Origin: Desulfomonilia bacterium
GTDB taxonomy: Bacteria > Desulfobacterota > Desulfomonilia > UBA1062
Length of the DNA: 64,000 nucleotides
Assembly (NCBI GenBank): GCA_050014195.1
Contig: JBEKDT010000004.1
Span: 96,001-160,000, forward strand
Direction: 5' to 3'
Shown here: in pieces, positions 39,679 through 56,211 of the stretch
Layout: every line of letters begins with the position of its first letter
Position numbering within the stretch: the first letter of the stretch is position 1
Position numbers and translations under genes: made by a program
Notes under the pieces: generated by a model
Seen by the model: the letters and a program-made list of their open reading frames with translations, nothing else
What the model was told of the DNA's origin: nothing
Database searches by the model: none

Positions 39679-39882
39679 GGGATTATTATATAAGTTTTTA
39701 TATATCTGGCAACATTAATTTCATACGGACAACCAACCCCCTTATGCCTTGGAGTGGAGAATAATATACTGCTATTTTAGGGATTGACAGACGGAAACAA
39801 ATCTGTCTAAAAATGTGCCTCATGTAGTCTTTGTTATGTTTACCCTCGCAAAACTCTTGCGAGACTGAGGAGGTTGTTTCCA

Positions 39883-42800
39883 ATGAACAACACTTGCCGT
39901 GTCAGGACACGTGTCTATTCGTTTGTTCCCAGGCTGGTGTCGGTCTTGTTCCTCATCTTTCTCTTCCTTGTACCGCTGAGCCCGTCAAAGACGAGTGGAA
40001 AATCTGCTGAAATAACCTGCACCCCTGATCCCCATAACGAGATCGCCACCGACAAGAACCTTCCGCTCGGGTGCGAGATGACCCTGAGCAGTTCTTTTTA
40101 CCACGAGATCCAGGGCAATCCCCTTCTGTATGAATGGTACGGACCGTTCTCTCCGAGCACCATATCGGAGCCGGAAGTGTTCATGCCCGAAGGGACTCAT
40201 GCAGTCTCCCTGCTTACCTTTGACGGCGTGCAACGCTCTGCCCCCCACGTCCTCTACATCACGGTCGATCCGGCATTCTCCATTTCCGCCGCTGCAAAGA
40301 AGGGGAAGGTAGTTGTCACGTGGCCCCATGTGCAGGGGGCCACTCGCTTTGACATCTACCGCGCCAAAGAGAGCGACCCTAGCCGATTCGAAAAGATTGC
40401 AGAGCTCCCGGCAGCAACAACCTCCTATACGAATGTAAACCTATGCGATGCAACCTATCTGTATGCCGTGGGTGCGTTGTCAAACAGGCAGTGGCTGTAT
40501 TCTCAGGTCAAGAGCTCTCATCCGTATTTAACATCCCCGATGTGCAATTACCCGCCTGTCATATACTCCGCACCCATAACCAAGGGCATTGTGGGCCTGA
40601 AATACACCTACGACGTGCAGGGGTCAGATCCCTTGGGGGACATGCTCACCTACAGCCTCTTAAGCCCACCGGCGGGCATGAGGATAAACTCCCAGAGCGG
40701 TCTCATCGAATGGACACCTCCTTCCCTGGGAGACTATGAGGTTACGGTCAAGGTGAAGGACTGCAAGGGCTCATACAAGATACAAAAATTCATCATTGAG
40801 GTGGATGAGCTCCCCGACATCAACAGGAACCCCATTGCCGATGCAGGCGGCCCATATGCCGCAGAGGTGGGCCAGCCGATATCTTTTGACGGCTCTTCAT
40901 CCTATGACCCTGACGGCGATCCCCTCCTGTATGCATGGATCTTCGGAGACGGCTCAAGCGGAAACGGGGCCTCTCCGAGCCATGCATATGGTGCTCCCGG
41001 AACATACCAGGTTACGCTCACGGTCTCTGACGGAAGGGGCGGAACCGCGACCGATGCAACCACAGCAAGCATTCAGCAGTGCCTGCCGCCAACAGTAGGC
41101 TTCTCTTCGAACCCGGCGGCCATACGGCAGGGCGAGTCATGCACCTTGCTCTGGACATCCAAGAATGCCTCCACCCTCAGTATCGACCACGGCATCGGAG
41201 ACGTGGGTGCATCGGGAACCATCACAATACAGCCACAGGCCACTACCACCTACACGATCACCGCAACAGGCCGCTGCGGGACGGCTGCAGAGTCTGTCAC
41301 CGTCATTGTCCATTCTCCGCCTGTTGTTCATTTGACCGCTGTCCCGGGGTCCATTGCGGCAGGGCAGACATCTAAGCTCTCCTGGACATCCGAGAATGCG
41401 GATACGGTAACCATCGACCAGGGCATCGGCCCGGTGACGCCGAACGGCTCTCTCGCCGTAGCTCCCACATCTACCACAACCTACACCATTACTGCTTCCG
41501 GGCCCGGAGGGACTGCAACCGATAGTGCAACAATCACGGTATACCAGCCGCCGCATGTAAGCCTGACCTCCCAACCCCAAGCAATCGCCGAAGGCGGGGC
41601 ATCAATACTCACCTGGACATCCGAGAATGCCGACTCTGCCTTCCTGGATAACGGCCTGGGCAATGTCGCCGTGAACGGATCGCTGGCGGTTTCCCCTGCA
41701 GAGACGACAACCTACGCAATAACGGTCCAGGGTCCCGGAGGCACGGCAACAGCCAGTGCTTCAGTAACCGTGCTTCACAAGCCGGCAGTCATCATTGCGG
41801 CCTCACCCGACACCATCGACGCAGGCGAGACCGCCACCCTGACTTGGACTTCCACCAATGCCGATTCCGCATCCCTTGACCAGGGCATAGGGGCCGTGGA
41901 GGTGAACGGCAGCCTGCAGGTGAGCCCATCCGAGACGACCACCTATACCATCACTGCAACAAGCCCCGGAGGCATTGCAACCGCCTCTGTGCCGGTCGGG
42001 GTCAACCACCCGCAGCTGCAAAGAAAGGCCTGCGCATACATCACGAACATGGAGAGCGGTGATGTCACGGTGGTGGATATCTCCACGAACAGTATCATAA
42101 CCCGTATCCCGGTGGGCACGGCACCCTACGGCGTTGCCGTGAGCCCTGACGGCGACCGGGTATATATCGCATGTGGAGGGAGTGACGGCGGGATATATGT
42201 CATTGATACCATTACCAATACGGTGGCAGGCACCATAGAAGGAATATATGCGACCACCCTGGCAGTGAACCCGGATGGATCGATCATCTATGCCGTGTCA
42301 GCCGTTGACGGGACACTCACGGCTATCGATGCACATTCCCATGGGGTCATCGGGGTCGTTCAGACAGGACCGTCGCCTTTCGGGATAGCTGTAAAACCCG
42401 ATGGAACAAGGATCTACATCACATCCATGGAAGATGGCACCATGAGGGTGATCGATGCTGCAACCTTGGCAGTCATAGACACCGTGCAGATTGTATACAC
42501 GGGGAAGCCCCTCTGGGATGTCGAGGTGAGCCCCGACGGGGCATTTGTGTATGTGGTGTCGAGTGATTCATGCCTCCTCGCCGTCATCGACACGAACACG
42601 GATGCTTTCGTGAACTCACATTTTTACATGCCCGAGAGGCATCTCGGAAGATGTTATCTTGCTGTGAGCCCTGATGGAAACCGCATATACCTGAGCATAA
42701 ACAATAGCACCTATTCCGCAGGATCGGTCTATGTCATTGACACACTCTCCCTTGGTGTTGTGAACAGGATTACCGCAGTATCCCCTTCGGACCTGTCATT

Positions 42801-44712
42801 CACCCCGGACGGAACATTCCTTTATGTGCCCGATAGCGGGGCAAACGGCGTCATGGTCATCGATTCCGGGTCAGACTCAGCGGCTGCTTTCCTGGGAGAC
42901 GATTTCAGCCGCCCCACGACCTGCGGCCATTTCATCACGAAACATAGGGAGCGGATTACCGGCAGGATCGTGGCCGATGGCGCGGGGGTCGAGGGAATCA
43001 TGGTCACGCTCACCGATGGCCGCATGACCTGGAGCTGTCCGACCGATGCACAGGGACGCTACATTTTCTATGCACCGCCCGGCAGCTATACCCTTTTCTT
43101 TTCCGGCAGGGGATATGCATTCGCGCAGCAGAACCTGGCAGTGAATGTCAGCGACAGGGAGATATCCATCACGGATACCGAGGTGCTTCTGGGCGTGAAG
43201 ATATGGTCGGAGCCCGGTTCAATAGCATCCGGACGAACGGCACTCCTGCTCTGGAGCTCGATCAAGGCTTCAAGCATCACCATAGACCAGGGCATCGGCA
43301 GTGTGGGAACGAGCGGTTCTTACGCAATATCTCCAAACGAGACCACGACCTATACGATAACCGCTTTTGACGGCCAGGGCAGGACAGTGACTGACCAGGT
43401 GACGGTGACCGTCTTCCCTCAGCCCCAGGTGAATATCAGTGCGGAGCCGCAGGTAATTTTGAAAGGACAGCCTGCCACCCTGTCATGGACGAGCACCAAT
43501 GCGGATACACTTACCTTGGGGCCATACGGATGGAATCTGGAGAACATCGGCTCTATCACGGTATTCCCTCAGGAGACCACGACCTACACCATTACCGCTT
43601 CAGGTCCGGGCGGGATTGCCACCGCCTCTGCCACTGTGACCGTGTATGAGCCGCCCCAGGTCACTATCTCAGCAAACCCCCAGACCATCTATGCAGGTGA
43701 ATCCTCTCTTCTCACCTGGTCCTCTTCCAATGTAGATCATGTCAGCATCGACAACGGCATCGGCAATGTGGAACCCGGCGGCTCAATGACCGTGAACCCC
43801 GCAAAGACCACGACTTATACCATCACCGCATCAGGCCCGGGCGGGGTCGCCGAGGCTTCAGCCACCCTGACCGTGAACAGCATCATCAGCCTCCACATCG
43901 ATTCCCCGGCAGAGGGAGCCCTCATCGACAGGCCGGACATCCTGGTGAAAGGCACCATGACAAACGTATACGGCAATGAGACCGGGGTGACGGTGAATGG
44001 GGTTCCGGCTGTCATTCATGGGGACAGGTTCTTTGTGAATCATGTGCCGCTCTCTCCAGGAGAGAATTCTCTGATAGTGCGGGCCGCCGATGTTCAAGGG
44101 AATGCTTCCGAAGTCGTTATTCCCCTTGATTGCGAGGTTACAGGGCCTTACATCACCCTGTCCGTCAATGATGCCGCGGGTATTTCACCATTCGAGTCAA
44201 TATTGAGGGTGGAGTCCTTCTTCGAGCCTGACAGCCTTACCTTCTCAGATTCCGGTCCCGGACAGATCGAGTATCTTGACGGATCGGATACGAATGAACG
44301 GCTCATAAAAATCCCAAATGCCGGAGTCTATTTCATTACGGCAAGGGTTTATAAAACCGGGGTGCTCTATACAGATACAATAGGGACTGTTGTACATGAC
44401 CGGACAGAACTTGATGGGATGCTCAGGCAGAAGTGGGCAGGCATGCGCACTGCCCTCCTGAATAATGATATTGATACGGCAGTGAAAGACATATCAAGCA
44501 GGACAAAAAATATATACCGGAATGCATTTGGCTATCTCACCGACAGCCAAAGAAGCAGCCTGGTGAATGAAATTGGTGACATCCGGCTCATCAAGATGAG
44601 AGGCACCGGAGTGGAATATGACATCCAGACAACAAGGGATGGTACCCTTTACTCATACATTCTTCTCTTCGATCTGGACGAAGACGGGATGTGGAAGGTC
44701 GCAAACTTTTGA
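39883..44712 (+). CDS. Giant exported repeat protein: FN3/putative Ig, PKD, tandem Ig-like repeats, YVTN/YncE beta-propeller, C-terminal domain
   Basis: Signal peptide; YSL..PPAGMRINSQSGLIEWTP (He_PIG-like); PIADAGGPY..FDGSSSYDPDGD..WIFGDG (PKD); ~7 'L.WTS.NA...IDQGIG...TTTYTITA.GPGG' repeats; AVSPDG repeats. Confidence 0.88.
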   Translation: MNNTCRVRTRVYSFVPRLVSVLFLIFLFLVPLSPSKTSGKSAEITCTPDPHNEIATDKNLPLGCEMTLSSSFYHEIQGNPLLYEWYGPFSPSTISEPEVFMPEGTHAVSLLTFDGVQRSAPHVLYITVDPAFSISAAAKKGKVVVTWPHVQGATRFDIYRAKESDPSRFEKIAELPAATTSYTNVNLCDATYLYAVGALSNRQWLYSQVKSSHPYLTSPMCNYPPVIYSAPITKGIVGLKYTYDVQGSDPLGDMLTYSLLSPPAGMRINSQSGLIEWTPPSLGDYEVTVKVKDCKGSYKIQKFIIEVDELPDINRNPIADAGGPYAAEVGQPISFDGSSSYDPDGDPLLYAWIFGDGSSGNGASPSHAYGAPGTYQVTLTVSDGRGGTATDATTASIQQCLPPTVGFSSNPAAIRQGESCTLLWTSKNASTLSIDHGIGDVGASGTITIQPQATTTYTITATGRCGTAAESVTVIVHSPPVVHLTAVPGSIAAGQTSKLSWTSENADTVTIDQGIGPVTPNGSLAVAPTSTTTYTITASGPGGTATDSATITVYQPPHVSLTSQPQAIAEGGASILTWTSENADSAFLDNGLGNVAVNGSLAVSPAETTTYAITVQGPGGTATASASVTVLHKPAVIIAASPDTIDAGETATLTWTSTNADSASLDQGIGAVEVNGSLQVSPSETTTYTITATSPGGIATASVPVGVNHPQLQRKACAYITNMESGDVTVVDISTNSIITRIPVGTAPYGVAVSPDGDRVYIACGGSDGGIYVIDTITNTVAGTIEGIYATTLAVNPDGSIIYAVSAVDGTLTAIDAHSHGVIGVVQTGPSPFGIAVKPDGTRIYITSMEDGTMRVIDAATLAVIDTVQIVYTGKPLWDVEVSPDGAFVYVVSSDSCLLAVIDTNTDAFVNSHFYMPERHLGRCYLAVSPDGNRIYLSINNSTYSAGSVYVIDTLSLGVVNRITAVSPSDLSFTPDGTFLYVPDSGANGVMVIDSGSDSAAAFLGDDFSRPTTCGHFITKHRERITGRIVADGAGVEGIMVTLTDGRMTWSCPTDAQGRYIFYAPPGSYTLFFSGRGYAFAQQNLAVNVSDREISITDTEVLLGVKIWSEPGSIASGRTALLLWSSIKASSITIDQGIGSVGTSGSYAISPNETTTYTITAFDGQGRTVTDQVTVTVFPQPQVNISAEPQVILKGQPATLSWTSTNADTLTLGPYGWNLENIGSITVFPQETTTYTITASGPGGIATASATVTVYEPPQVTISANPQTIYAGESSLLTWSSSNVDHVSIDNGIGNVEPGGSMTVNPAKTTTYTITASGPGGVAEASATLTVNSIISLHIDSPAEGALIDRPDILVKGTMTNVYGNETGVTVNGVPAVIHGDRFFVNHVPLSPGENSLIVRAADVQGNASEVVIPLDCEVTGPYITLSVNDAAGISPFESILRVESFFEPDSLTFSDSGPGQIEYLDGSDTNERLIKIPNAGVYFITARVYKTGVLYTDTIGTVVHDRTELDGMLRQKWAGMRTALLNNDIDTAVKDISSRTKNIYRNAFGYLTDSQRSSLVNEIGDIRLIKMRGTGVEYDIQTTRDGTLYSYILLFDLDEDGMWKVANF

Positions 44713-44797
44713 ACTATCCCGTTGCGATTGAACATCTGCTAAGGGGTTGTGATGGTATCATTACAGGTACTACAGGGCTTGTTTTGAAAAAGGGGGA

Positions 44798-45547
44798 ATG
44801 GGAATGCTGACAAAAAAGGCATGTCTGATACTGACCATGGCGATGCTTCCTCTCGGTCTTATGGGTGCAGACCTGTTCGGGAATGTGACATTCAGGGGCA
44901 AGGTGATCGATGCAGACACCCTCAAACCCATCGAAGGGGCGGTGGTAGTGGCCGAGTGGGAGAAATGCCACCCAGGGATAGGTGAAGGCTCATTATGTGA
45001 TTTCAAGATGGTTAAAGAGACACTGACAAATGCTTCTGGTGAGTGGAGCATCACAGGGCCACAAGGTGATAGTTTACCTAGTAAGACTCGGGAGATTCTC
45101 GGGTTCATCGTATCATGGACAGCACCGCCTCGTTTTCAGATCTACAAACAAGGGTACTGCAGACTTCACCAGAAACCAGGCGGATTACATGCATATCCAT
45201 ATGTAAATAAAGAAAAGAGGTTGGAAGGGATCGTATTGGTCCGCATGGGTGATACGAAAGAAGAGGAAAATGAATTTATGAAACAATATCTTCTAGAAGG
45301 TTTCGTTCCTTTTATTCCAGTTAAGGATCCGGAGAGGAAGCTTCGGGAGCTGAATTTCGACTTTCGATACCCTCCTGATGTTATGAGTATAAGGGATGTT
45401 TGGGAAAACACTATGTATGATGTAATCGGTTTAAAGAAGGCAGTGACACAAGAAGAAAAGAAGGAAGCGGAAATATTGCCTGCCACTGTAGATCATTGGA
45501 TTTATCTGCCTCTGTTAAGGAAGACAGTTGAAAATAGTATGAAATGA
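44798..45547 (+). CDS. Exported protein with carboxypeptidase-regulatory-like N-terminal domain
   Basis: Signal peptide then FRGKVIDADTLKPIEGAVVVAEW...ETLTNASGEW. Confidence 0.78.
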   Translation: MGMLTKKACLILTMAMLPLGLMGADLFGNVTFRGKVIDADTLKPIEGAVVVAEWEKCHPGIGEGSLCDFKMVKETLTNASGEWSITGPQGDSLPSKTREILGFIVSWTAPPRFQIYKQGYCRLHQKPGGLHAYPYVNKEKRLEGIVLVRMGDTKEEENEFMKQYLLEGFVPFIPVKDPERKLRELNFDFRYPPDVMSIRDVWENTMYDVIGLKKAVTQEEKKEAEILPATVDHWIYLPLLRKTVENSMK

Positions 45548-45572
45548 TTGCTGAAGAGGAGGTCTTGGTGAA

Positions 45573-47741
45573 ATGAAGAGGATATGGTTAATTGTATTCT
45601 GTGGGGTCAGTCTTCTCAACCTTGTTGTAATGCATATGGACTGCTTTTGTTACAATGTGAATGATCATGGGGAAATGTGTAATTTTGTATCAGATAACAC
45701 TGTTGATGGTTTTTCTTTTGACCAATACCTGAAACACAATCTCGGTTTTGACCTCGGCAAGGATCAGTATTTCACTGAAGCCCCGATCATGGCACTATTC
45801 TGGTTCGGCATCTTTGCAAAGGAACCGGTTAATGCAAAAGAGTGTCTTGCCCAGGGAGCGAGAGACGAAGACTCTCCAGTCATTCGTTGCAAAAACCATT
45901 TTCACGACCCCTCAATGACTTGGGATCTAGCTGGGTTAAATAGGGGTGAAGGCTTAGAGGGTGGTAAGTCATCGATACTCTGGGCACAGCTTGGGCAGGG
46001 AACACAGGATTATGGTGCGTATAGCTGGCATGATGCACGGCAATACTTTTACAAAGCGCTTACCACAACAGATCCTAATGAGAAAGGCATGAACCTTATG
46101 ATGACGTTTCAGGCAGTCGGTCACCTCATGCACCTGATTCAGGATGCCTCAGTGCCGGAACATGTGAGAGATAATTCTCATATCACAGGATATAATTACG
46201 AAAAATATGTGTCAGTATATTGCAATCCAAAATCTGATAAATACAATACCTTTCTGAATTGGCTAAACGATAATACAGGATACACCTTCAACGACTCTGC
46301 CTTCAATCTGCCGAGCAACAGCGAAGCCCCGATCCCCATTGCGCGGATCGTGGATACAGACAGATATGGCGGCACGAACCCCTCCATCACCATGGAGCAG
46401 CCCATCGGCATCTCGGAATATACAAATGCAAACTATTTCAGCAAGGACACGATCTTCACATTAGATAAATATCCTTTCCCCAATTGGGGAAGCGTGGATA
46501 CCGGTGCAGTGCTCATCCAGAACCCGAGGAATTCATCCGGAGAAATACACAGGCAATATCTTCTTAAAGTGCAGGACGGAGATTCAGGTTATCGCCTCTG
46601 CACGGCACCTCTGCTTGCCGGTCAGGTCCCTGACACGGCCGAGTATCTGGCCCCCATGCTGGATGACTCCGTATATGGAGACTATGCCGCGCGGCTGGTT
46701 CCCCGGGCCGTGTCTTATTCGGCCGGGCTGCTCAAGTATTTTTTCAGGGGTACCCTTGAGATCTCGCTGCCAGCGAGCGGTGTGTATGCATTCACTTCAA
46801 CTGAACCTGCAGACCCGAGGTCAAAGGGGTTCAACAAGGTGTCCCTGATGGTAAAAAACTCTTCGAGCTCAGGTGAGCCGATGAACGCAGGGGGGATCGA
46901 ACTGGTGGTCCAGTACCGGTTCCTGACGAACGACCAGAATGCCGATGACCCTCGTTCGGCGGCACTGGACCCCTTTGTCATGTACCCGGCATCGAACCTG
47001 CCTGCCCTCAGCAAACCCATATACCTTGTGAAGGCCTTGGATTCGAATAAAGATCATCGCATAACCACTGACCCGCAATTGCTTGAATTCAACCTCGATA
47101 ACGACGAGATCCCGCTCTGGGCAATAGATGTAAGACTGTATGTCGTGTACAAGGGCAAGCTCGGTACGACCGGCAGCGGGGGATATGAGGAAGATTCCGC
47201 GGTATGCGTAGGATACAAGAATATCAATGAACCTACTTCATTGGATATCATCAATGACACAGATACGGTCTGTAAAAATGATGAATGGTGTGAAGCATCC
47301 GATGTCGAGAATGTTAAACCCAAATATATTACGAGCTTCTATCTTCGATTCTCACCGGAAGCCCAACCCCAGGATGCATCCCCTGCAGAGGGAGAACATA
47401 TTTATGCGCTCAGCAATATTAACCCCGGGAAATACAAGAGAGTCTATCTGCTGAGCGATAATACGTACAGCGAGAGTGTCCATTATTCTTATCACTTTGC
47501 CGGAGAAAGCGATATGTATGAGGGTTCAAGCACCTATCAGAGGACAGCCATCAAGAATGGGATATATCGCGATGACATCAATGATACGGTGATAAGATAT
47601 TACCCCATATTCGATGATTTCAGAAATATTACTTATTGGAACATGTTCTACTTCCTCAATTTCGACATATGTACTTTGAGCTCATGCCCGGAAGGTTGTG
47701 ATAATGCCGATAATCCCTTTGATCTTGAATTGATGTTATAA
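45573..47741 (+). CDS. Exported protein with Zn-dependent phospholipase C / P1 nuclease-like N-terminal domain
   Basis: RBS AGGAGG, signal peptide; metal-ligand pattern H...ED...NHFHDP...GHLMHLIQDASVPEH...YE. Confidence 0.7.
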   Translation: MKRIWLIVFCGVSLLNLVVMHMDCFCYNVNDHGEMCNFVSDNTVDGFSFDQYLKHNLGFDLGKDQYFTEAPIMALFWFGIFAKEPVNAKECLAQGARDEDSPVIRCKNHFHDPSMTWDLAGLNRGEGLEGGKSSILWAQLGQGTQDYGAYSWHDARQYFYKALTTTDPNEKGMNLMMTFQAVGHLMHLIQDASVPEHVRDNSHITGYNYEKYVSVYCNPKSDKYNTFLNWLNDNTGYTFNDSAFNLPSNSEAPIPIARIVDTDRYGGTNPSITMEQPIGISEYTNANYFSKDTIFTLDKYPFPNWGSVDTGAVLIQNPRNSSGEIHRQYLLKVQDGDSGYRLCTAPLLAGQVPDTAEYLAPMLDDSVYGDYAARLVPRAVSYSAGLLKYFFRGTLEISLPASGVYAFTSTEPADPRSKGFNKVSLMVKNSSSSGEPMNAGGIELVVQYRFLTNDQNADDPRSAALDPFVMYPASNLPALSKPIYLVKALDSNKDHRITTDPQLLEFNLDNDEIPLWAIDVRLYVVYKGKLGTTGSGGYEEDSAVCVGYKNINEPTSLDIINDTDTVCKNDEWCEASDVENVKPKYITSFYLRFSPEAQPQDASPAEGEHIYALSNINPGKYKRVYLLSDNTYSESVHYSYHFAGESDMYEGSSTYQRTAIKNGIYRDDINDTVIRYYPIFDDFRNITYWNMFYFLNFDICTLSSCPEGCDNADNPFDLELML

Positions 47742-48018: not shown

Positions 48019-48228
48019 ATGAGAATATATACAGCGGTAATTGAAAAATGTAGCGATACAGGATTGTATGTCGGATACGTACCTGGTTTCGCCGGTGCCC
48101 ACTCTCAGGCTGAAAGTCTCGATGAGCTCAAGGACAATCTAAAGGAGGTCATCGAGATGTTGTTGGAAGAAGGAGAACCCGACCTTGAGGCCGAGTTTGT
48201 TGGAACCCAGACAATTCAAGTTGCCTGA
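48019..48228 (+). CDS. hicB: HicB-family antitoxin (short)
   Basis: YTAVIE..YVGYVPGFAGAHSQAESLDEL..NLKEVIEM. Confidence 0.9.
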   Translation: MRIYTAVIEKCSDTGLYVGYVPGFAGAHSQAESLDELKDNLKEVIEMLLEEGEPDLEAEFVGTQTIQVA

Positions 48229-48230
48229 TC

Positions 48231-48464
48231 ATGGTGAAGCCACCCATATTAAAACCCAAAGAGGTGGTGATTCTTCTTGAAAAAAAAGGTTTTACCGAAG
48301 TCCGCCAGAGAGGTTCACATAAACAATACCGCCACCCGGACGGCAGATACACAACTGTCCCCTTCCACCCCGGCCGTGATATTTCTCCTATACTGCTGAA
48401 ACAGATCGCCAAGGACATTGGGCTAACTGTCGAAGAATTGGTATCCTCCTCAGATTCGAAATAA
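48231..48464 (+). CDS. hicA: HicA-family mRNA interferase
   Basis: GF.EVRQRGSHKQYRH.DGR.TTVPFH. Confidence 0.92.
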   Translation: MVKPPILKPKEVVILLEKKGFTEVRQRGSHKQYRHPDGRYTTVPFHPGRDISPILLKQIAKDIGLTVEELVSSSDSK

Positions 48465-48516: not shown

Positions 48517-48739
48517 CGGCCCATTATGACTGTGGTTGACAGATATACAACATCCAGTTAATGTCATTAATATCATATTGAGATCAGATCTTATTTCAAC
48601 ATGTACTGGGGCTAATATAACCATTGTATATTGGGAAGAGAATTGAAAAATTCAATGATCACCTCAAAGAATTTATTATGATGAGGGTTTATCCCAAGAA
48701 GAATGTGTCCATAACATAAAATGTTGAGGAGGATGTGGT

Positions 48740-49378
48740 ATGAAGAAATTTGATCCATTTGATTTTCCAGAGGAACAGATACCAAAACATTCTAAGGTTG
48801 TTAATGTGGTATGTTTTTTTGATGTAGTTGAATTTACAAAAGAGACTACTAATAAAGATATGCAAAATATCATAAGGAAAATTGAAGAAGATATGTCGGA
48901 TTTACTTTATAATGGTTTTAACTGGAATGAAAAAGGAAGAGATAAGTACGACGAGCCTATTCACAATGATCTTATTCTAATCCCAACTGGCGATGGTTAC
49001 GGTATAGGATTCAACCCCGGCCTCGACGATAAAAGAATATTAGATACAATAACTAGTATATATAAGCAGTTGCTCGCGGATAATGGTTTGAAAATCCGGA
49101 TGGGTGTAGCTAAGGGGCCCAATGTAAGACATATAGACAAGAACGATGTTGTTAATCTCTTCGGATATGGTATAAATTTAGCGGCCAGAGTTATAAATGT
49201 GGCAAAACCAAATCAAATTCTTTTACACTCTGTTTATGCTGAAGAACTTGGCCAGGCTACAAAGATGTCTGATCTATGCAAGATTGAAAAGCCTATGCCT
49301 AGCAAACACGGAGAAAGCATTATCGTCTATAATTATTATAGAAGTGGCGAGTTTGGCATCCCACATCCCAAACAATAA
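48740..49378 (+). CDS. Stand-alone class III nucleotidyl (adenylate/guanylate-type) cyclase
   Basis: RBS GAGGAGG; metal-binding FFDVVEFT and TGDG, IRMGVAKG, GYGINLAARV, QILL, SKHG; visibly AT-rich. Confidence 0.85.
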   Translation: MKKFDPFDFPEEQIPKHSKVVNVVCFFDVVEFTKETTNKDMQNIIRKIEEDMSDLLYNGFNWNEKGRDKYDEPIHNDLILIPTGDGYGIGFNPGLDDKRILDTITSIYKQLLADNGLKIRMGVAKGPNVRHIDKNDVVNLFGYGINLAARVINVAKPNQILLHSVYAEELGQATKMSDLCKIEKPMPSKHGESIIVYNYYRSGEFGIPHPKQ

Positions 49379-49400
49379 TTAATAAATAACAATAAAAAAT

Positions 49401-50474
49401 ATGGAATACTATCTCTTTGTAACACATGCATGCAATATGAGATGCGCTTATTGCTCATCTCAAAGAGTATTATCTTCAAATAGCAATTCATTGTTAACCG
49501 ATGAAAAGGTAGATCAAGTTCTGGAATACATAAAAGAGAATCAAAATGGAGTTGAAGATACACTTGTTTTCTTTGGTGGTGAGCCATTATTAGAACATCA
49601 TTTGATCGAAGATATTATGAATAAGAGCAAAAACTTAAAACTAAAATATATGCTCTATTCTAATGGTTTATTAATTAACAAAGTTCCTCTTGCCCTTTTA
49701 AACTCACTCGACGCCATTTTTATATCTCTAGACGGAGATAAAACCGCGCATGATAAATATAGAGGGTTGGGAACATATGATAAGATAATTGATAACCTTA
49801 AGTACCTAAAAGCAAATGATGTTTCTTTTACAATTGGAAGGATCACTGTTGAAGAAGAGACAAATCTTTATGAATCTGTCACAAACATCTTACCACATGT
49901 CAATTCAGTATTTTGGCAAATCGTTAATAAACCAAATTTTACCAATCCAACCAAATTTATTAAAAATTATAAAGATGAACTAAATATTCTTTTTAAATAT
50001 TGGTTAGATAATTTTAGTAAAGGCAATTTAATTAATATAATCCCCTTCTTAGCCGTTGTTGATTATTTGGCATTTAACAACCGTAGGAGCCATTCATTTA
50101 GATGTGGGGCGGGTAGTAATTTTCAGGCAATTGATATTGATGGTAAAATATATTGGTGTGATGAGTATGTTGGTGATCCAGCTGGCGTAATAGGCAATAT
50201 TAAAAACCATAAAAATAACAATCATTACATATGCCACAGGGATATCTTTGAGAATTGCAAAACTTGTGATTTGGGGGATATTTGTTTGGGTAGATGTAGA
50301 AAATGTCTAACTGACTATAAAGCCGAGCACGTAGCAATGTATTGCGAGTTAACAAAGCATCTTATTAATTTAATTAAAGATAATTTAACAGAAGTTAATC
50401 AAATAATTACTAATTATAATTATAACAGCAATACTTTTTACAATATTACTCATTGCACGGAAGAAATTCCTTAA
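49401..50474 (+). CDS. Radical SAM/SPASM protein (resembles the AF0577/TIGR04084-type family)
   Basis: CNMRCAYC, FFGGEPLL, SNG, ISLDG; SPASM RCGAG..DG.IYWC..CKTC...ICLGRC...YC; ends EEIP; very AT-rich. Confidence 0.85.
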   Translation: MEYYLFVTHACNMRCAYCSSQRVLSSNSNSLLTDEKVDQVLEYIKENQNGVEDTLVFFGGEPLLEHHLIEDIMNKSKNLKLKYMLYSNGLLINKVPLALLNSLDAIFISLDGDKTAHDKYRGLGTYDKIIDNLKYLKANDVSFTIGRITVEEETNLYESVTNILPHVNSVFWQIVNKPNFTNPTKFIKNYKDELNILFKYWLDNFSKGNLINIIPFLAVVDYLAFNNRRSHSFRCGAGSNFQAIDIDGKIYWCDEYVGDPAGVIGNIKNHKNNNHYICHRDIFENCKTCDLGDICLGRCRKCLTDYKAEHVAMYCELTKHLINLIKDNLTEVNQIITNYNYNSNTFYNITHCTEEIP

Positions 50475-50746: not shown

Positions 50747-51625
50747 TTACTTTTGCCAGAACCTTTTTATGATTATCTGCCGGGCATAATCTGCAGATTT
50801 TGGTTTGGCAGGGAACAGGCCCAAGACATTTGTTGGGACACCCTCAGGAAATCTATTAAGAATACAAGCGCCACTGGTACCACACCTCTCAAGCACATTT
50901 GTCCAGACACCCTTGGGTGACATTCGCAATGGTTCAACCCATTTTAATGAAGCGCTTTGCCAATTACTCTTGAACTGGGGATCCCATAAATTATTGTCTT
51001 CGAATAACAATTGTCCAGTCTTGGGATTCACAAATGCAAACTTCGAAGTACCATGTGTTGATGAGTGATAAACCCCGAGAACCGCAACTACACAAATGTT
51101 GTTGTTAGTAAAACTTAAATCACTGAGGATCTTATAAGCATATATCTGGTAGTCGAAAAGCTCCTCAGGTTTACCTGTAAGTAAGGAGAACTCATTTCGA
51201 TTAGTACCCTTAAATGACAATTCGAAAATAAATGGTTGATTAGGATCTTTGGTTAGGATGTCTAGTGATACAACCCCTTTACCTATTTCAATACCATTTG
51301 TCTGAATCAAGATAGGGACTTTGTATGGCTGATATGCTTCACTTAAACCGTTTAGAACATCAATTAAGCTCGACCACTGGAGTGTAGGTTCACCGCCAGT
51401 GAAACGGATGAAAGCCTTACCTTTGTCGTATAGAATACTTCGTGTCCCATCTATTATTTCTTTTGAAGATAATACATGCGAAGGATCATCTGTCTCCATT
51501 GGCCTAGATGCTGGACTCCAGCAAAAGTGGCAACTGAGATTACATCCCGAAAAATCCCACCGGATTTCCTGATACTCTCCATAGAAGAAACTTCCGGGTG
51601 AGTACTTCTTTCTTATCCTGAGCAT
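50747..51625 (-). CDS. Radical SAM protein (COG5014-like), function unknown
   Basis: FFYG...GCNLSCHFCWS, RFTGGEPTL, IQTNG, LSFKGT..EF..LTG; no SPASM domain. Confidence 0.82.
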   Translation of the reverse strand: MLRIRKKYSPGSFFYGEYQEIRWDFSGCNLSCHFCWSPASRPMETDDPSHVLSSKEIIDGTRSILYDKGKAFIRFTGGEPTLQWSSLIDVLNGLSEAYQPYKVPILIQTNGIEIGKGVVSLDILTKDPNQPFIFELSFKGTNRNEFSLLTGKPEELFDYQIYAYKILSDLSFTNNNICVVAVLGVYHSSTHGTSKFAFVNPKTGQLLFEDNNLWDPQFKSNWQSASLKWVEPLRMSPKGVWTNVLERCGTSGACILNRFPEGVPTNVLGLFPAKPKSADYARQIIIKRFWQK

Positions 51626-51736
51626 CCTTTGGATACCTCTTTTTAAAAAGTACTTTATTGTATGGTTAAGGTCTCATTTACTATTTCAGTAGATTCTCTT
51701 TGGCAAAGGTTTGTAAAATTTTTTGGCTAGGAAAAT

Positions 51737-53029
51737 CTAAACTGATACCAACTTGTTTGCTAGAGCAACTGGAATAAGAGAGTTATCATACATGTTACAC
51801 CTGAGTTCAGCGATTAGAGAGAGGATCTCCTCCAAGTGTGGTATGTCTGCTGATCTTGGTTCTGCAAGATAAGAGGTTGCAGGAACAGTTAAAACGTGCA
51901 TTTCTCCACCAGAAGCTCGGTAAAATATTTTCTGGCCGTAATAGGTGTTCTGGCCATAAGATACCCCAGCTTCACCCGGTATGATATACTTACGAATATA
52001 TGAGTCTCCAACTATGAAATATGATCCCTGTTCCATACAATCCTGGATAGCTGCTGCATGCTCGACGAATGCGCCGCTCTTTTCAAGACCTGCTAAACGA
52101 ACTGTTGGACCAGTAGGTCCTCCAGGCTGGCTTAGCAAGTGTGAAATAAGCTCTCTCATAGGTTTGTAAAGGGGCGCCACTAGACCGAAAAAGGCGAGAG
52201 GACCATCTTTGATGAAGAGTATGTTTCGCATTAGGCTTGGCTTGAGGTGTTCAAGAATGTCATGGAATAGATGTACTAAGATGAGCTGCTCAAGCATTGT
52301 CATTAAATAAGAAATTATTCCACCTGCTCCGAGTTCTTCGTCAATGCGCTCATGTAATCTAAAAGTGTCTGTCAGGTATATTGGTTGATTGCATCCAGGG
52401 CATTTTTTATTAGTTGGATCACCATACTTAAAAGTAATATTGTCATGACCACAATTGTATGGGCAGTGAGCTATTGTTTCTTCATAGTTATTGTCTTGTT
52501 TACGCATCCAGCGACGGAAGAGAAACCATTGAAGACTGTCGATAAGCTTTTCACCTTCACCATGTTCCTTAATAAAAAAATCATATATGGTTCGCCGGAT
52601 TGTTGCAGACAGGGACGTTTGATCTTTATGACGAATACCCTTTGTTGGTATAACAAGTGAGTAGCGCTCTATCTTCTTTAGCCGTGCTAGATCTTCTGGG
52701 GCAATAAACCTTTTGCAATCAAGGGATCGTAGGTCTGAAAGCTCAAATAGTAATGGACCGAATGTAAAGAATGTAATCGAAGCTGAAGGATACTCTTCAC
52801 GCACAAAGGTTTCAGTAAAACCACCATCAATTGCAATTACTGCTGAGACTTCAGAAGTATCTACATTGTCAAGAATGGTCAGATAAGGCTCTAAAAACAG
52901 AGAGTCAGGTGCTGAAGGAATGATGCATTGATCAATATAAGCCTGAACATTAGGATTCTTGATTATTTCAACATGAGCGATCTTACTTGCTCGTTCAATT
53001 GGTTTACGGCCCTTTGATGAATATCCCAC
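51737..53029 (-). CDS. nurA: NurA-family nuclease (probable 1-nt frameshift at the extreme C-terminus)
   Basis: IAIDGG, TDTFRLHE, FIKDGPLAFFG, GLEKSGAFVEH, TYYG.K, LIPVALANKLVS; 2 nt downstream of the herA stop. Confidence 0.85.
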   Translation of the reverse strand: MGYSSKGRKPIERASKIAHVEIIKNPNVQAYIDQCIIPSAPDSLFLEPYLTILDNVDTSEVSAVIAIDGGFTETFVREEYPSASITFFTFGPLLFELSDLRSLDCKRFIAPEDLARLKKIERYSLVIPTKGIRHKDQTSLSATIRRTIYDFFIKEHGEGEKLIDSLQWFLFRRWMRKQDNNYEETIAHCPYNCGHDNITFKYGDPTNKKCPGCNQPIYLTDTFRLHERIDEELGAGGIISYLMTMLEQLILVHLFHDILEHLKPSLMRNILFIKDGPLAFFGLVAPLYKPMRELISHLLSQPGGPTGPTVRLAGLEKSGAFVEHAAAIQDCMEQGSYFIVGDSYIRKYIIPGEAGVSYGQNTYYGQKIFYRASGGEMHVLTVPATSYLAEPRSADIPHLEEILSLIAELRCNMYDNSLIPVALANKLVSV

Positions 53030-53031
53030 CT

Positions 53032-54960
53032 TTATTGCCCCTTCAACACTGTGAATCGATCAATTTGAACAGGTACAATGAAGGCATTGGAATATGTCTT
53101 CATACGAATAAAGCCTTTGTCTGTTGTTCTTCGTAAGCTATCAACAAAGTCTTCATAATCGTAATACTTGGCTATCTCTCTTAATTCATCTCTGTTGTTT
53201 AGGTGTGAGACAAACCAGTTCTGGGTGTTCTTTAGCACGTTGGCCGAAATAGAACTTACCTCTTGCGTTGCATAGATCAATCCCAACCTGAGTTTAGCAC
53301 CTTCCTTTGCAATCCTGTTGTATATCAATGTTAAGTCAGCCTCATTCTTTTTAGGAAACAGGTTATGTGCTTCTTCGAAGTACATCTGAATGAAGTTAGC
53401 TGGTTCGTTGTTGATGAATCTTTTCATAGCATCACTGAAGATAGCTCCACATAGGCGATCAGAATACGTTCTCTGAATTTTAGGATCACCTTGCGACAGA
53501 TCAATAATTACAACCTTCCCTTCACGTAATAAATCAACTACCTCCTCTTCATAAGACTTCTGGAGTGTTGAGGTGTGAAGGTTGCGGATAGGTATTAGTT
53601 TTCGAAATCCAGCCTCACTTGCTTGATGTCCAGGAGAAGGTTTTCTTGTAAGGAACCTCATCAAGCTCTGCAAGTCATCATCAGCCCATTCGTGATTGTG
53701 ACTCGTTCGATAATTGCTGAAATATTGGTCGGTATTGTAATTATCCCAAACCCAGGTAAACCAACGTATAGTCTCGTCAACAGTAAGACCATCTTTCGGA
53801 TTCAATCCAACAGCATTGTTGATATGCTCCGTTCCAACAAATTTAATCTTATGTTTTTGAGGAATAGTGAAACCAGCATTGCCAAGTATAGCTTGGTAGC
53901 AGGCTTTACGCCTTCCATACCTTGTTGTTGCACTTACATCCTGTGAATCAGGTTCCTCCCAATTAACATTCAGGAAGGCTTGGGTATAAATTGCCCTGTC
54001 ATCTTGTAGGTTGGCCCTGATCATCTCAAAGCCTTCAAGAAGCTGCTTATAGAAATTGAGCTTCATTACTTTAAAGCCTGGTTTCTCGAGTATGCTGTAT
54101 CTAGTTACATCATCTTTGTAGAGGTTATAAATGGCGGTACCTTCATCTTGCTGATTGTCATTTGCGTACTCACCATTAACATCAAAGATGATCTGACCTA
54201 TCGGCCCAACTGTTTCTGTATCTAACATTTTCTCTAATGTAGTGATTTCAGCTGTGGCCTTGATTACCATCTTCACTGTATTGGATTTACCAGTACGTGT
54301 CATTCCAAATAGAGCTGTTCGTTTTCCTAGGTAGTCAAGTGCAGAAACATAAACTGGCACTGATGGTCCCTGGGTATGACGCTGACTAGATGCATATCGT
54401 ACCTCACCAATCCTCTGATCACCTGGTCCGCCTGGTAAACCAGCACCTTCTCTGAAGTTTACAATATATTCAAGCACTTTCCCAACTGGCTTATAGATCG
54501 AGTAGTTATTCGGACCATAAAAATTATCTACATCTGCACCAAAGCATGTCTTGCCGTCAGATATACGGTAGAAAGATCCTAGAACACGACATTCAAGGCC
54601 TGAAAACTGGAACTCATACCTAGTGTAGCTATCAAGTTGATTAATCGAAGATTCACTCTCTGCACGTTCTTTGTAGTGATCGACCATGGCAGCTACAACA
54701 TCTGAGTCAGAAGGAAGTGTTGTTGGGCCTAATACACGTAGAAGAATCAGTTCAGGATTCTCCTTATCATTATCAAATATGGCTGTGAGAAAAGAACCTG
54801 CCGGAATACCCCCAATCTTCTCTTTCCAATAATCATTTGATAGCACCTTCATTGTGTTAAAGTCGAAGTAAAAGGGGCGGCCAACAAAAGCCTCAGGCTT
54901 GGCTACATCATTGAATAAATCAACAGTTGCAAGCTCCTTTAGTCTTTCCTGAAGTGACAT
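53032..54960 (-). CDS. herA: HerA/DUF87 family ATPase-translocase
   Basis: Walker A FGMTRTGKSN, IFDVNGEY, Walker B FEEAHNLF, RIAKEGAK, YATQE; N-terminal HAS-barrel-like region. Confidence 0.9.
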   Translation of the reverse strand: MSLQERLKELATVDLFNDVAKPEAFVGRPFYFDFNTMKVLSNDYWKEKIGGIPAGSFLTAIFDNDKENPELILLRVLGPTTLPSDSDVVAAMVDHYKERAESESSINQLDSYTRYEFQFSGLECRVLGSFYRISDGKTCFGADVDNFYGPNNYSIYKPVGKVLEYIVNFREGAGLPGGPGDQRIGEVRYASSQRHTQGPSVPVYVSALDYLGKRTALFGMTRTGKSNTVKMVIKATAEITTLEKMLDTETVGPIGQIIFDVNGEYANDNQQDEGTAIYNLYKDDVTRYSILEKPGFKVMKLNFYKQLLEGFEMIRANLQDDRAIYTQAFLNVNWEEPDSQDVSATTRYGRRKACYQAILGNAGFTIPQKHKIKFVGTEHINNAVGLNPKDGLTVDETIRWFTWVWDNYNTDQYFSNYRTSHNHEWADDDLQSLMRFLTRKPSPGHQASEAGFRKLIPIRNLHTSTLQKSYEEEVVDLLREGKVVIIDLSQGDPKIQRTYSDRLCGAIFSDAMKRFINNEPANFIQMYFEEAHNLFPKKNEADLTLIYNRIAKEGAKLRLGLIYATQEVSSISANVLKNTQNWFVSHLNNRDELREIAKYYDYEDFVDSLRRTTDKGFIRMKTYSNAFIVPVQIDRFTVLKGQ

Positions 54961-54975
54961 ATACTTTCATACCTC

Positions 54976-56211
54976 CTATGCCCAGTTCTTCGAGGATGAC
55001 CATTCAATCGGATTTAACCTAGGCAACTTTTTTTTGTTTGTTTTCTGGTGACCCAGGATAAGAATTCTATCAGTCTTTGTGGCCTGTCCACGGGTGTGCT
55101 TCCAGATACGGCTTACCTTATGCTCAGATGGTACTTCATCAACTATAACTGCAATACGATGCCAATCAAGCTTGGATGCAATTTCAGCCCAGACACACTC
55201 AGCAAGATTGGTAATTTTACCAGTACTCTTCTCCATGACATCACCAAAGATTAGACAGAGATATCCATCATCTCGTACGGCCTCCTTAAGTTGCTCTAGA
55301 ACTACATTCATGAATGCAAGGTATTTTCTAAGAGAACTTGTTGAGATAAGCTTTTGATCTACATTCTTAGAATCCTGCTTAAGCATCCATAAGCGTATCC
55401 AATTATATTTTCCATAACGTATAACACTTAAATATGGGGGTGAAGTGAAGACCAGCTTAGCTGGATTATTCCGAAGATCTTTTGGAAAAGGATCTCTCAC
55501 ATCTTGTCTCCAGGCATGTCCTCGTGTCCCATCTTCATTTGGTAAGTGCATCCTAGCCAACTTCGATTCCATTAAATCAAAGACATCAATATAAGGTGGA
55601 ATCAGTCCATTGTCTTTGATGTATCGACGTACGTATCCTGGTGCCATTGAGAATGTGTTTGGCATACTAATCGAAAGACCTCTTGCTGGTCTTCCTGGCT
55701 TATAATTCGCATGCATGATTCCAAGCAGTAGAGCCAATAAGAAACGATCAGTACGATCAGTGCTATTAAGCGAATCACGTAACCATAAGAGTTGCCCAAG
55801 AACAATTGGGTGATAAAGCATTTGGATGTCATCTGGAGCCTCTGCGGGGTTACCAGGGCAACATGCCTTACGGAGTATATGAATTCGGTCAAGAGCCTCT
55901 TTTTGAGAAGGTGGGTTTACCTTTGCACCAGTTAATATGTAAGCTAATGGGTTTGCATCAGAACCAAAGCCAATGCGCCCTAGACGGCATGCCTCCATGG
56001 GGGTTGTACCTCTACCTGAGAATGGATCATAAACGATATCCCCTGCATCAGTCAGCCAGCGGATGAAAACATGTGGAATATGTGGCGGGAACATAGCAAA
56101 ATAAGAGCAAAGAGAGTGCAAGGGATGGCCCCAGCGTCTTGGTGCTATATGCCACTGTTGATTAATATGGCTGGTACATACTTTTAAACTTCGGGCGTAA
56201 TTCTCAGACAA
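54976..56211 (-). CDS. Amino (N4-C/N6-A) DNA methyltransferase, alpha order
   Basis: H..CSYFAMFPP, motif I YDPFSGRGTT, motif IV FTSPPY; TTG start with GGAGG RBS. Confidence 0.88.
   Translation of the reverse strand: MSENYARSLKVCTSHINQQWHIAPRRWGHPLHSLCSYFAMFPPHIPHVFIRWLTDAGDIVYDPFSGRGTTPMEACRLGRIGFGSDANPLAYILTGAKVNPPSQKEALDRIHILRKACCPGNPAEAPDDIQMLYHPIVLGQLLWLRDSLNSTDRTDRFLLALLLGIMHANYKPGRPARGLSISMPNTFSMAPGYVRRYIKDNGLIPPYIDVFDLMESKLARMHLPNEDGTRGHAWRQDVRDPFPKDLRNNPAKLVFTSPPYLSVIRYGKYNWIRLWMLKQDSKNVDQKLISTSSLRKYLAFMNVVLEQLKEAVRDDGYLCLIFGDVMEKSTGKITNLAECVWAEIASKLDWHRIAVIVDEVPSEHKVSRIWKHTRGQATKTDRILILGHQKTNKKKLPRLNPIEWSSSKNWA

Follow-up and report, generated by a model that had tools for sequence, protein, structure and literature searches.

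The window analysed here, a stretch of 64,000 nucleotides (nt) from a Desulfomonilia bacterium (contig JBEKDT010000004.1, positions 96,001 to 160,000), carries on its forward strand two adjoining genes, one for a minimal stand-alone class III nucleotidyl cyclase and one for a radical S-adenosylmethionine (rSAM) enzyme with a SPASM domain. The two genes constitute one conserved, horizontally mobile operon and are inherited together, and the cyclase family is combined, by adjacency or by fusion, with typical immune modules, namely pore-type PycTM/2TM effectors, TIR and HEAT. The pair is probably an undescribed relative of the cyclic-nucleotide immune systems. It is tentatively read here, at a probability of roughly 0.42, as a Pycsar-like conflict (anti-phage) module in which the rSAM/SPASM enzyme would act as output or partner.

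A conserved and mobile two-gene operon

The open reading frame (ORF) of the cyclase, of 212 amino acids (aa), occupies positions 48740..49378 (+), and is preceded by a Shine-Dalgarno-like GAGGAGG at 48726..48732 (+), found by sequence inspection 7 nt before the ATG. A 22-nt AT-rich spacer at 49379..49400 (+), an operonic spacing read from the ORF boundaries, separates it from the 357-aa ORF of the rSAM/SPASM enzyme at 49401..50474 (+). The assignments rely on PF00211, an alignment of 35 relatives (A1) and an AlphaFold2 (AF2) model searched with Foldseek for the cyclase, and on PF04055, an alignment of 40 rows (A2) and an AF2 model searched in the same way for the rSAM enzyme. An earlier reading made from the letters alone (the sequence-only reading) had described two very AT-rich genes 22 nt apart, and the ORFs lie exactly there, with a G+C content (GC) of 0.32 for the pair vs 0.45 for the remainder of its 12.6-kb locus. 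GC is 0.329 at 49001-50000, vs 0.45-0.65 across most of the window, and the low-GC stretch spans about 44.8 to 57 kb.

Given that 62 homologues of the cyclase (E<=1e-3) and about 65 close homologues of the rSAM enzyme exist, both ORFs are real genes and not chance; all of the latter score at least 244 bits, and the next match falls sharply to 99 bits. The database gene call for the rSAM enzyme (P0063, 345 aa) begins at Met13, which loses C11 of the CxxxCxxC motif. Since the 36 full-length rows of A2 all start with MEY, the other four being N-terminally truncated, 49401 is the correct start. A promoter scan remained at chance level (13 promoter-like sites vs 11.2 expected), a terminator scan of the locus returned none, and a search of sequencing runs listed 24 DNA runs with the sequence, from peat and wetland metagenomes, and no RNA run.

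Scanning the contigs of genomes and metagenomes for the family pattern yielded at least 62 loci. An rSAM homologue adjoins the cyclase in 20 of the 62 recovered, a count that is biased upward by recovery via the cyclase, with a small blind sample from the rSAM side pointing the opposite way. Once four copies of the window's sequence and a duplicate record are merged, at least 16 distinct paired loci remain, in at least four phyla, from metagenomes and from metagenome-assembled genomes (MAGs) labelled Aminicenantales, Oscillospiraceae and Paludibacteraceae. Homologues that were not neighbours elsewhere would have told against the sequence-only reading, and this check failed to refute it. In a Desulfobaccales MAG (L001), the cyclase lies at the end of one contig, and another contig opens with the C-terminal half of an rSAM gene.

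The cyclase precedes the rSAM gene in 14 distinct loci and follows it in two, with an intergenic spacing of -11 to +69 nt in 15 related loci. Cyclase and rSAM identities, taken pairwise over the loci, are correlated (Mantel r = 0.82, n = 15 loci, with 0 of 2000 permutations as high), and in 14 of 15 loci the flanks are less AT-rich than the pair. The cassette measures 1.7 kb and is found in anaerobes of peat, gut and sediment. The cyclase was not found by tblastn against plasmid and phage collections or by a pattern scan of viral contigs, which is neutral for the interpretation. Two cyclases with no adjoining rSAM gene (L024:3023-3505 and L025:1-585) miss the N-terminal strand with the first metal-binding Asp, and are probably relics of decayed cassettes.

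Motifs and predicted folds of the two proteins

Judged by its motifs and its predicted model, the cyclase folds like an active class III nucleotidyl cyclase, keeps the catalytic residues of one and looks catalytically competent. It matches PF00211 with 26.6 bits against a gathering threshold of 21.9, over residues 103-165 only, and it has no PADLOC and no NCBIfam match. In the AF2 model, with a predicted local distance difference test score (pLDDT) of 91.9, all 212 aa form one cyclase domain, and the top Foldseek neighbours listed from the PDB are all class III cyclase domains (TM-score 0.56-0.68, E 1.5e-10 to 9e-9, 12-22% identity). Among PDB sequences, the A1 profile matched RhGC (E 5e-7), CyaB and mycobacterial cyclases, and no PycC structure appeared among the profile or fold matches. 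Applied to representative proteins, the same profile gave 2507 matches at E<=1e-10, mostly multidomain cyclases. A hydropathy scan showed no transmembrane segment, and there is no extra sensor domain, which agrees with the sequence-only reading on both points, as does the presence of both catalytic aspartates and of the N/R pair.

The motifs of the window cyclase are FFD28VVEFT, TGD85GY, R120MG and GIN146LAAR150, and the A1 signature reads FFD28VVGFT, IPTGD85GY, IR120MGIAKG and NLFGYGIN146LAxR150. All 35 rows keep D28, D85, R120 and R150; five of them replace N146 (GIVLA in four, GIIDA in one). From a reading of the motifs and a beta-hairpin in the AF2 model, D28 and D85 would be the metal-binding aspartates and N146/R150 the transition-state pair. 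The role of D85 is one that we infer, as the HMMER alignment to RhGC places the canonical GD opposite N76-D77 rather than D85. Class III cyclases work as dimers and use Lys/Asp to select ATP and Glu/Cys to select GTP. By motif alignment, the canonical base-specifying positions are I81/P82 and Y143 here, and since neither residue pair is kept, the base of the product is not predictable.

The cyclase family has no conserved Cys, and the sole Cys of the window protein, C25, stands in a column that reads L/M/I/A in 29 of 35 rows. An N-terminal DPFxY tail was considered as a target specific to the rSAM enzyme, and was rejected because cyclases that are linked to HEAT-repeat proteins and lack an rSAM gene bear a similar F-N/D-Y tail. 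Complex prediction for the cyclase (A1) and the rSAM enzyme (A2) scored 0.00 in both runs, which were made without controls, and weighs neither way.

By motifs, profiles and predicted fold, the second protein is a SPASM enzyme, complete and of the anSME/sactisynthase type, which modifies proteins or peptides. Its cluster motif is C11xxxC15xxC18, with 64.6 bits for PF04055 (threshold 29.5) and 44 bits for Fer4_12. The seven-Cys SPASM motif reads CX9-15GX4C ... CX2CX5CX3C ... C and goes with two auxiliary clusters. Its seven counterparts here (C235, C253, C286, C289, C295, C299 and C315) are invariant in all 40 rows of A2 and are spaced as C235, G248-x4-C253, C286-x2-C289-x5-C295-x3-C299 and C315, the first spacing, of 17 residues, being slightly beyond the usual 9-15. 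The Pfam SPASM model PF13186 gave no match, and there is no N-terminal RRE extension ahead of CxxxCxxC.

The AF2 model (pLDDT 91.5) has full-length Foldseek neighbours in anSMEcpe (TM-score 0.70-0.75), CteB (0.74-0.75) and ChlB (0.73-0.74). Viperin and MoaA reach 0.44-0.47 over the common rSAM core only, and BlsE and DesII are in the same list at 0.49-0.51. The A2 profile agrees, with CteB at 2.7e-32 and anSME at 1.4e-29 among PDB sequences, the remaining matches covering the core only. Like anSME and CteB, the enzyme combines CxxxCxxC with a seven-Cys SPASM domain and is of about the same size, with an N-terminal domain that is absent (anSME) or dispensable. It differs from them in being just 21-23% identical, in having no sulfatase gene or Cys-rich precursor peptide near the window pair, in scoring below the cut-off of every NCBIfam equivalog, and in its family-specific C-terminus.

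The best NCBIfam model is TIGR04084 (rSAM_AF0577), which aligns end to end (residues 5-357 on 1-347 of 347; 190.5 bits, E 3.9e-56) but stays under its curated cut-off of 225, and PapB follows with 144 bits. The nearest large clusters of a protein atlas are archaeal rSAM/SPASM families of 353-374 aa (Methanobacteriota, Thermoproteota). By sequence, the window family is a separate, tight bacterial clade, a relative of TIGR04084 and not a member. Its C-terminus, TEEIP-COOH (50460-50474), is nearly invariant, all 40 rows keeping E354 and P357; such conservation at the very end of a protein is often the mark of a docking or self-inhibiting tail.

A longer, fused form of the rSAM enzyme was not found at E<=1e-20, in a search that is weak as evidence, and none of the ten longer proteins domain-scanned from the best 150 cyclase-profile matches is an rSAM fusion. 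The sequence-only reading had noted no clean precursor-peptide ORF nearby. This holds for the window, and across 15 loci no ORF of 18-90 aa within 500 nt of the pair was common to distinct loci, only near-identical loci giving matches.

Partners and surroundings of the two genes

A profile search of 1.8 billion representative proteins returned at least 44 representatives of the cyclase family at E<=1e-30. In three paired loci (L017, L018 and L022), a gene 15-18 nt after the rSAM gene matches the PADLOC models of PycTM and of the CBASS 2TM effector over their full length (E 1e-14 to 1e-19); the Pfam PycTM model gives just 18 bits for that of L017, whose cyclase, as in the window, has no PADLOC match. 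Fusions within the family place TIR ahead of the cyclase (P0167, P0188) or behind it (P0200) and HEAT ahead of it (P0195), and in P0181 the cyclase is joined to a weak rubrerythrin-like region. In a maximum-likelihood tree of the cyclases, P0167, P0188 and one HEAT/rubrerythrin subclade fall inside the rSAM-linked group, in a poorly resolved region. P0167 also matches the PADLOC bSEFIR model (E 3.6e-75), and as the alignment reaches about 70 residues into its cyclase part, a validated bSEFIR defence protein may bear a related C-terminal domain.

A sister branch of cyclases (30-42% identity) pairs with a HEAT-repeat (PBS-lyase-type) protein of about 175 aa instead of the rSAM enzyme. A HEAT partner or fusion occurs in 12 rows of the family, five checked with Pfam and the others assigned by BLAST clustering. 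These HEAT-linked cyclases (L005, L007, L015, L036, L038 and others; e.g. L036:1012-2192) always adjoin or are fused to the HEAT protein, and they come from Dehalococcoidia and Nitrospinaceae MAGs and from soil metagenomes. We know of no described two-gene system of a cyclase and a HEAT protein. The genes of about 175 aa were also considered as a second, degenerate cyclase subunit, which was rejected, as Pfam identifies HEAT repeats and the BLAST clusters merged via fusion proteins.

Most two-gene loci have no other recognisable effector candidate. No PADLOC match was obtained for the downstream genes of L002 (197 aa), L012 (209 aa, two transmembrane segments) and L003 (PIN_12), or for the neighbours in L024 and L027. 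The window contains no transmembrane or TIR effector, as the sequence-only reading had stated, though relatives carry PycTM or TIR. The window's genome, which is 100% complete, encodes the cyclase once and gives no match to PF18967 or to anything PycTM-like.

The rSAM enzyme also occurs apart from the cyclase. A sample of 400 other genomes of the window's phylum had it in three, eight genomes of the same family had it in none, and of 398 further genomes scored in the class to which the Oscillospiraceae MAG belongs, two had it. In one genus, two genomes (G142 and G075, 97-100% complete) have a lone rSAM gene whose product is 44-46% identical to the window's. The orphan of the first (L065, G142:C35) has an 870-nt ORF-free region upstream and, by a reading of translations, lies beside aldehyde:ferredoxin-oxidoreductase-like and 4Fe-4S ferredoxin genes; L066 (G075:C242) is the second such locus.

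Two other genomes (G718 and G675) hold a second rSAM branch, 42% identical to the rSAM enzyme of L004 and convergent with the gene of a protein with a TIR domain, 36% identical to its counterpart in L004 and L019; the TIR assignment in G675 comes from a reading of a 171-aa partial ORF without a Pfam match. Members of this branch (L072:3-2598, L073, L004:2232-5436 and L019) end in YTE[YF]T and not in TEEIP, and their partner is a convergent protein of about 490 aa that has a TIR domain at its N-terminus and whose conserved C-terminal domain has no known family. The cyclase lies between the rSAM and TIR genes in L004 and L019, and is absent from L072, L073 and their genomes; in L072 (G718), a tyrosine integrase adjoins the rSAM/TIR locus. 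The rSAM enzyme is hence a module with at least three contexts, namely with the cyclase, with a TIR protein with or without the cyclase, and alone.

In the window, the pair sits between a HicB/HicA pair upstream and a minus-strand operon downstream. Genes for a HicB-like antitoxin (69 aa) and a HicA toxin (77 aa) lie directly upstream of the cyclase at 48019-48464 (+). On the minus strand follow a further radical SAM protein (50747-51625; 292 aa), which lacks SPASM, has only weak MoaA/QueE/NrdG-like core matches and is unrelated to that of the pair, a protein of 430 aa that matches no family and nothing in the PDB (51737-53029), a HerA/DUF87 ATPase (53032-54960), and an N6/N4 DNA methyltransferase (54976-56211; PADLOC MTase_II, 1.3e-38). 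This four-gene run (50747-56211), found among the recovered loci only in copies of the same genome, may be a defence operon of restriction-modification-like or MADS-like type with its own radical SAM gene. Further upstream, at 39874-47741 (+), lie a protein of 1612 aa with many Ig-like and beta-propeller-type repeats and then proteins of 249 aa and 722 aa. The latter two have hydrophobic N-termini and no significant Pfam family, that of 249 aa giving one sub-threshold CarboxypepD_reg match, and both are already within the low-GC stretch.

Mobile-element or defence genes flank most loci that have flanks. They include GmrSD/HEC-05 with an AAA ATPase (L014), PIN_12 (L003), HipA (L021), an HD/dGTPase-like gene (L020), Mob_Pre (L017), a TraG-like gene (L002), a TIR/ThsB-like protein (L004, L019) and an integrase (L072). 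The suggestion of a defence system made from the sequence alone thus gains from context and family partners (PycTM, TIR, HicAB, GmrSD) that are defence-like, and PADLOC gave no full-system match, as had been expected.

A candidate immune module and its alternatives

Under the favoured reading, the cyclase would make a cyclic mononucleotide of unpredictable base, either on infection or, more speculatively, constitutively as a guard signal, which would fit a cyclase that is sensor-less. The cyclase is read as a signal generator because PycTM and TIR, which its family takes as partners, are effectors of immune systems that use cyclic nucleoside monophosphates (cNMPs). The rSAM/SPASM enzyme would be the output module of the two-gene form, controlled by the cyclase or acting together with it, and would covalently alter a host or phage protein, or burn S-adenosylmethionine (SAM), under anoxic conditions. 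It is favoured as output since most pair loci are without another recognisable effector candidate and since the enzyme serves TIR partners where there is no cyclase. Where a third gene is present, the membrane effector PycTM would join the two.

Pycsar systems join a PycC cyclase, which makes cCMP or cUMP, to an adjacent cNMP-activated effector, PycTM or PycTIR. With them, the cassette shares a small mobile operon built around a minimal class III cyclase that stands alone and retains its catalytic residues, the full-length PycTM/2TM-type effector in the same operon of related loci (L017, L018, L022), and the recurrence of TIR domains with the cyclase family. The window cyclase differs in having no match to any PADLOC model, those of PycC included, and in being no closer to solved PycC than ordinary cyclases are. 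The window copy has no transmembrane or TIR effector and its genome no PycTM, and the constant partner of the window-type cyclase is a radical SAM/SPASM enzyme. As described in the text of a preprint survey of immune cNMP cyclases (10.64898/2026.08.12.744502), which lists Pycsar-1, -2 and -3, Pycsar-like-4 (with E2-like accessories) and Pucsar, Pycsar-like-4 sets a precedent for accessory protein-modifying genes beside the cyclase. That text, figures and Table S1 excluded, has no occurrence of 'radical SAM' or 'SPASM'. In the part of PMC7159879 (Kaur et al. 2020) at hand, a radical SAM effector is mentioned only in FtsH-vWA systems, and the part of PMC13069673 at hand does not mention radical SAM. 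The literature searched held no description of a cyclase-rSAM/SPASM pairing, nothing on TIGR04084 or bSEFIR, and nothing relevant linking SPASM to defence or to a nucleotidyl cyclase.

Several observations weigh against the Pycsar-like reading. The cyclase is not a recognisable PycC, neither in the window nor in L017 by PADLOC and not by profile or fold. No cyclic-nucleotide-binding domain is recognisable in the rSAM enzyme by Pfam, NCBIfam or the AF2 model, and in the three PycTM loci this enzyme looks more like an accessory than an effector. The four genomes with a family-level rSAM gene that were found blind (G142, G075, G718, G675) have no cyclase, so the coupling of the rSAM enzyme to the cyclase is not obligatory. 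A distant rSAM match (29% identity, 119.5 bits) in G235, the third genome with a match in the window's phylum, is likewise without a cyclase found, at 82% completeness. The defence neighbours are guilt by association, supportive rather than statistical, and the mechanism of the cassette is one that we infer throughout.

A bolder form of the Pycsar-like reading is doubtful. According to it, the SPASM enzyme would be a new oxygen-sensitive effector of cyclic-nucleotide immunity which, once licensed by the sensor-less cyclase, inflicts irreversible crosslinks or oxidation on a protein of phage or host, or depletes SAM. Licensing would come from a rise of cNMP on infection or, in the manner of Panoptes, from the removal by phage sponges or phosphodiesterases of a cNMP made constitutively. 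This enzyme, plugged alternatively behind TIR-based partners, would then be a portable 'anaerobe-only' immune effector.

In the main rival reading, which is unlikely, the rSAM enzyme would instead be an accessory maturase, which would modify the cyclase by crosslinking, oxidation or epimerisation and so prime or restrain it, the true effector being PycTM where present and, in two-gene loci, encoded elsewhere or consisting of the cyclase's own product. The enzyme is closest in fold and profile to enzymes acting on proteins and peptides and, like anSME, lacks an RRE. With no conserved precursor ORF within 500 nt in 15 loci, the co-encoded cyclase is its obvious substrate, and the tight operonic coupling, the co-variation of both proteins and the additional presence of a conventional PycTM effector in three loci point the same way. 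Accessories that modify immune enzymes have precedents. Cap2 and Cap3 act on CD-NTases in type II CBASS. The text of the survey describes protein-modifying accessories beside Pycsar-like cyclases (10.64898/2026.08.12.744502). However, thioether or formylglycine chemistry on a cyclase Cys is ruled out, as the cyclase family has no conserved one, and the DPFxY-type tail is present in similar form on HEAT-linked cyclases without rSAM. Such a role also leaves the rSAM enzyme without a substrate cyclase in the four family-level genomes, and most two-gene loci without an effector.

A role outside immunity is quite unlikely. The pair would then serve anaerobes as an accessory module of regulation or metabolism, for example with cNMP signalling in control of a protein-maturing rSAM enzyme for a redox enzyme, or it would be a RiPP-like system whose precursor was missed. 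In either case the defence neighbours would be usual island content. The orphan rSAM gene of G142, with its aldehyde:ferredoxin-oxidoreductase-like and ferredoxin neighbours, is consistent with this, as are the archaeal rSAM/SPASM families in the nearest large atlas clusters and the uncharacterised TIGR04084 as best NCBIfam model. Against it stand the combination of the cyclase family with PycTM, TIR and HEAT modules, the patchy distribution of a cassette that is AT-rich relative to its flanks, the mobile-element and defence genes around most loci with flanks, and the lack of a conserved precursor ORF.

The two-step small-molecule pathway of the sequence-only reading, in which the rSAM enzyme would modify an NTP or the cyclic product by viperin- or MoaA-like chemistry to yield a modified cyclic-nucleotide signal or an antiviral nucleotide, is very unlikely. 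The other option of that reading, an rSAM enzyme that matures the cyclase or responds to it, may hold. The two-step pathway has some points in its favour. It draws on the PADLOC pVip models, which match the rSAM enzyme at E 4e-19 to 5e-18, and on the NCBIfam model viperin_w_prok (NF038283) at 63.4 bits, as well as on the existence of small-molecule SPASM/twitch enzymes, BlsE and DesII being among the fold matches. A modified signal might also evade phage cNMP phosphodiesterases. Yet the pVip matches are restricted to the generic core (residues 5-182), and that to viperin_w_prok covers residues 5-175 only, far under its cut-off of 180 bits. The pathway is not supported by the comparison of folds and profiles, and is the weaker reading because the enzyme resembles anSME, CteB and ChlB over its full length (profile E 1e-29 to 1e-32) and viperin and MoaA in the core only. 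That the enzyme also pairs with a TIR protein without a cyclase, and occurs alone, argues against it too.

Viperins have no SPASM domain and act on NTPs. The likeness of the pair to pVip and to OpnA of Ophion lies in a radical SAM enzyme in a defence-type locus and in the pVip matches to its core, and the difference from viperin is that the match ends there. Ophion, as described in the part of its report at hand, consists of an rSAM enzyme with PHP and PRTase proteins and, unlike the window pair, has no cyclase (10.1101/2025.09.30.679545).

If the Pycsar-like reading is true, the cassette would add radical protein chemistry to nucleotide-signalling immunity, and the pair would yield a new clade of small cyclases with unpredicted base specificity. 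The swapping of partners among rSAM, PycTM, TIR and HEAT is a natural experiment on the role of a minimal cyclase, and the cassette, being small, portable and conserved, is amenable to direct testing. To our knowledge, anti-phage systems have been characterised almost exclusively in model bacteria grown with oxygen, and hence oxygen-sensitive immune chemistry, to which such a cassette would belong, is largely unexplored.

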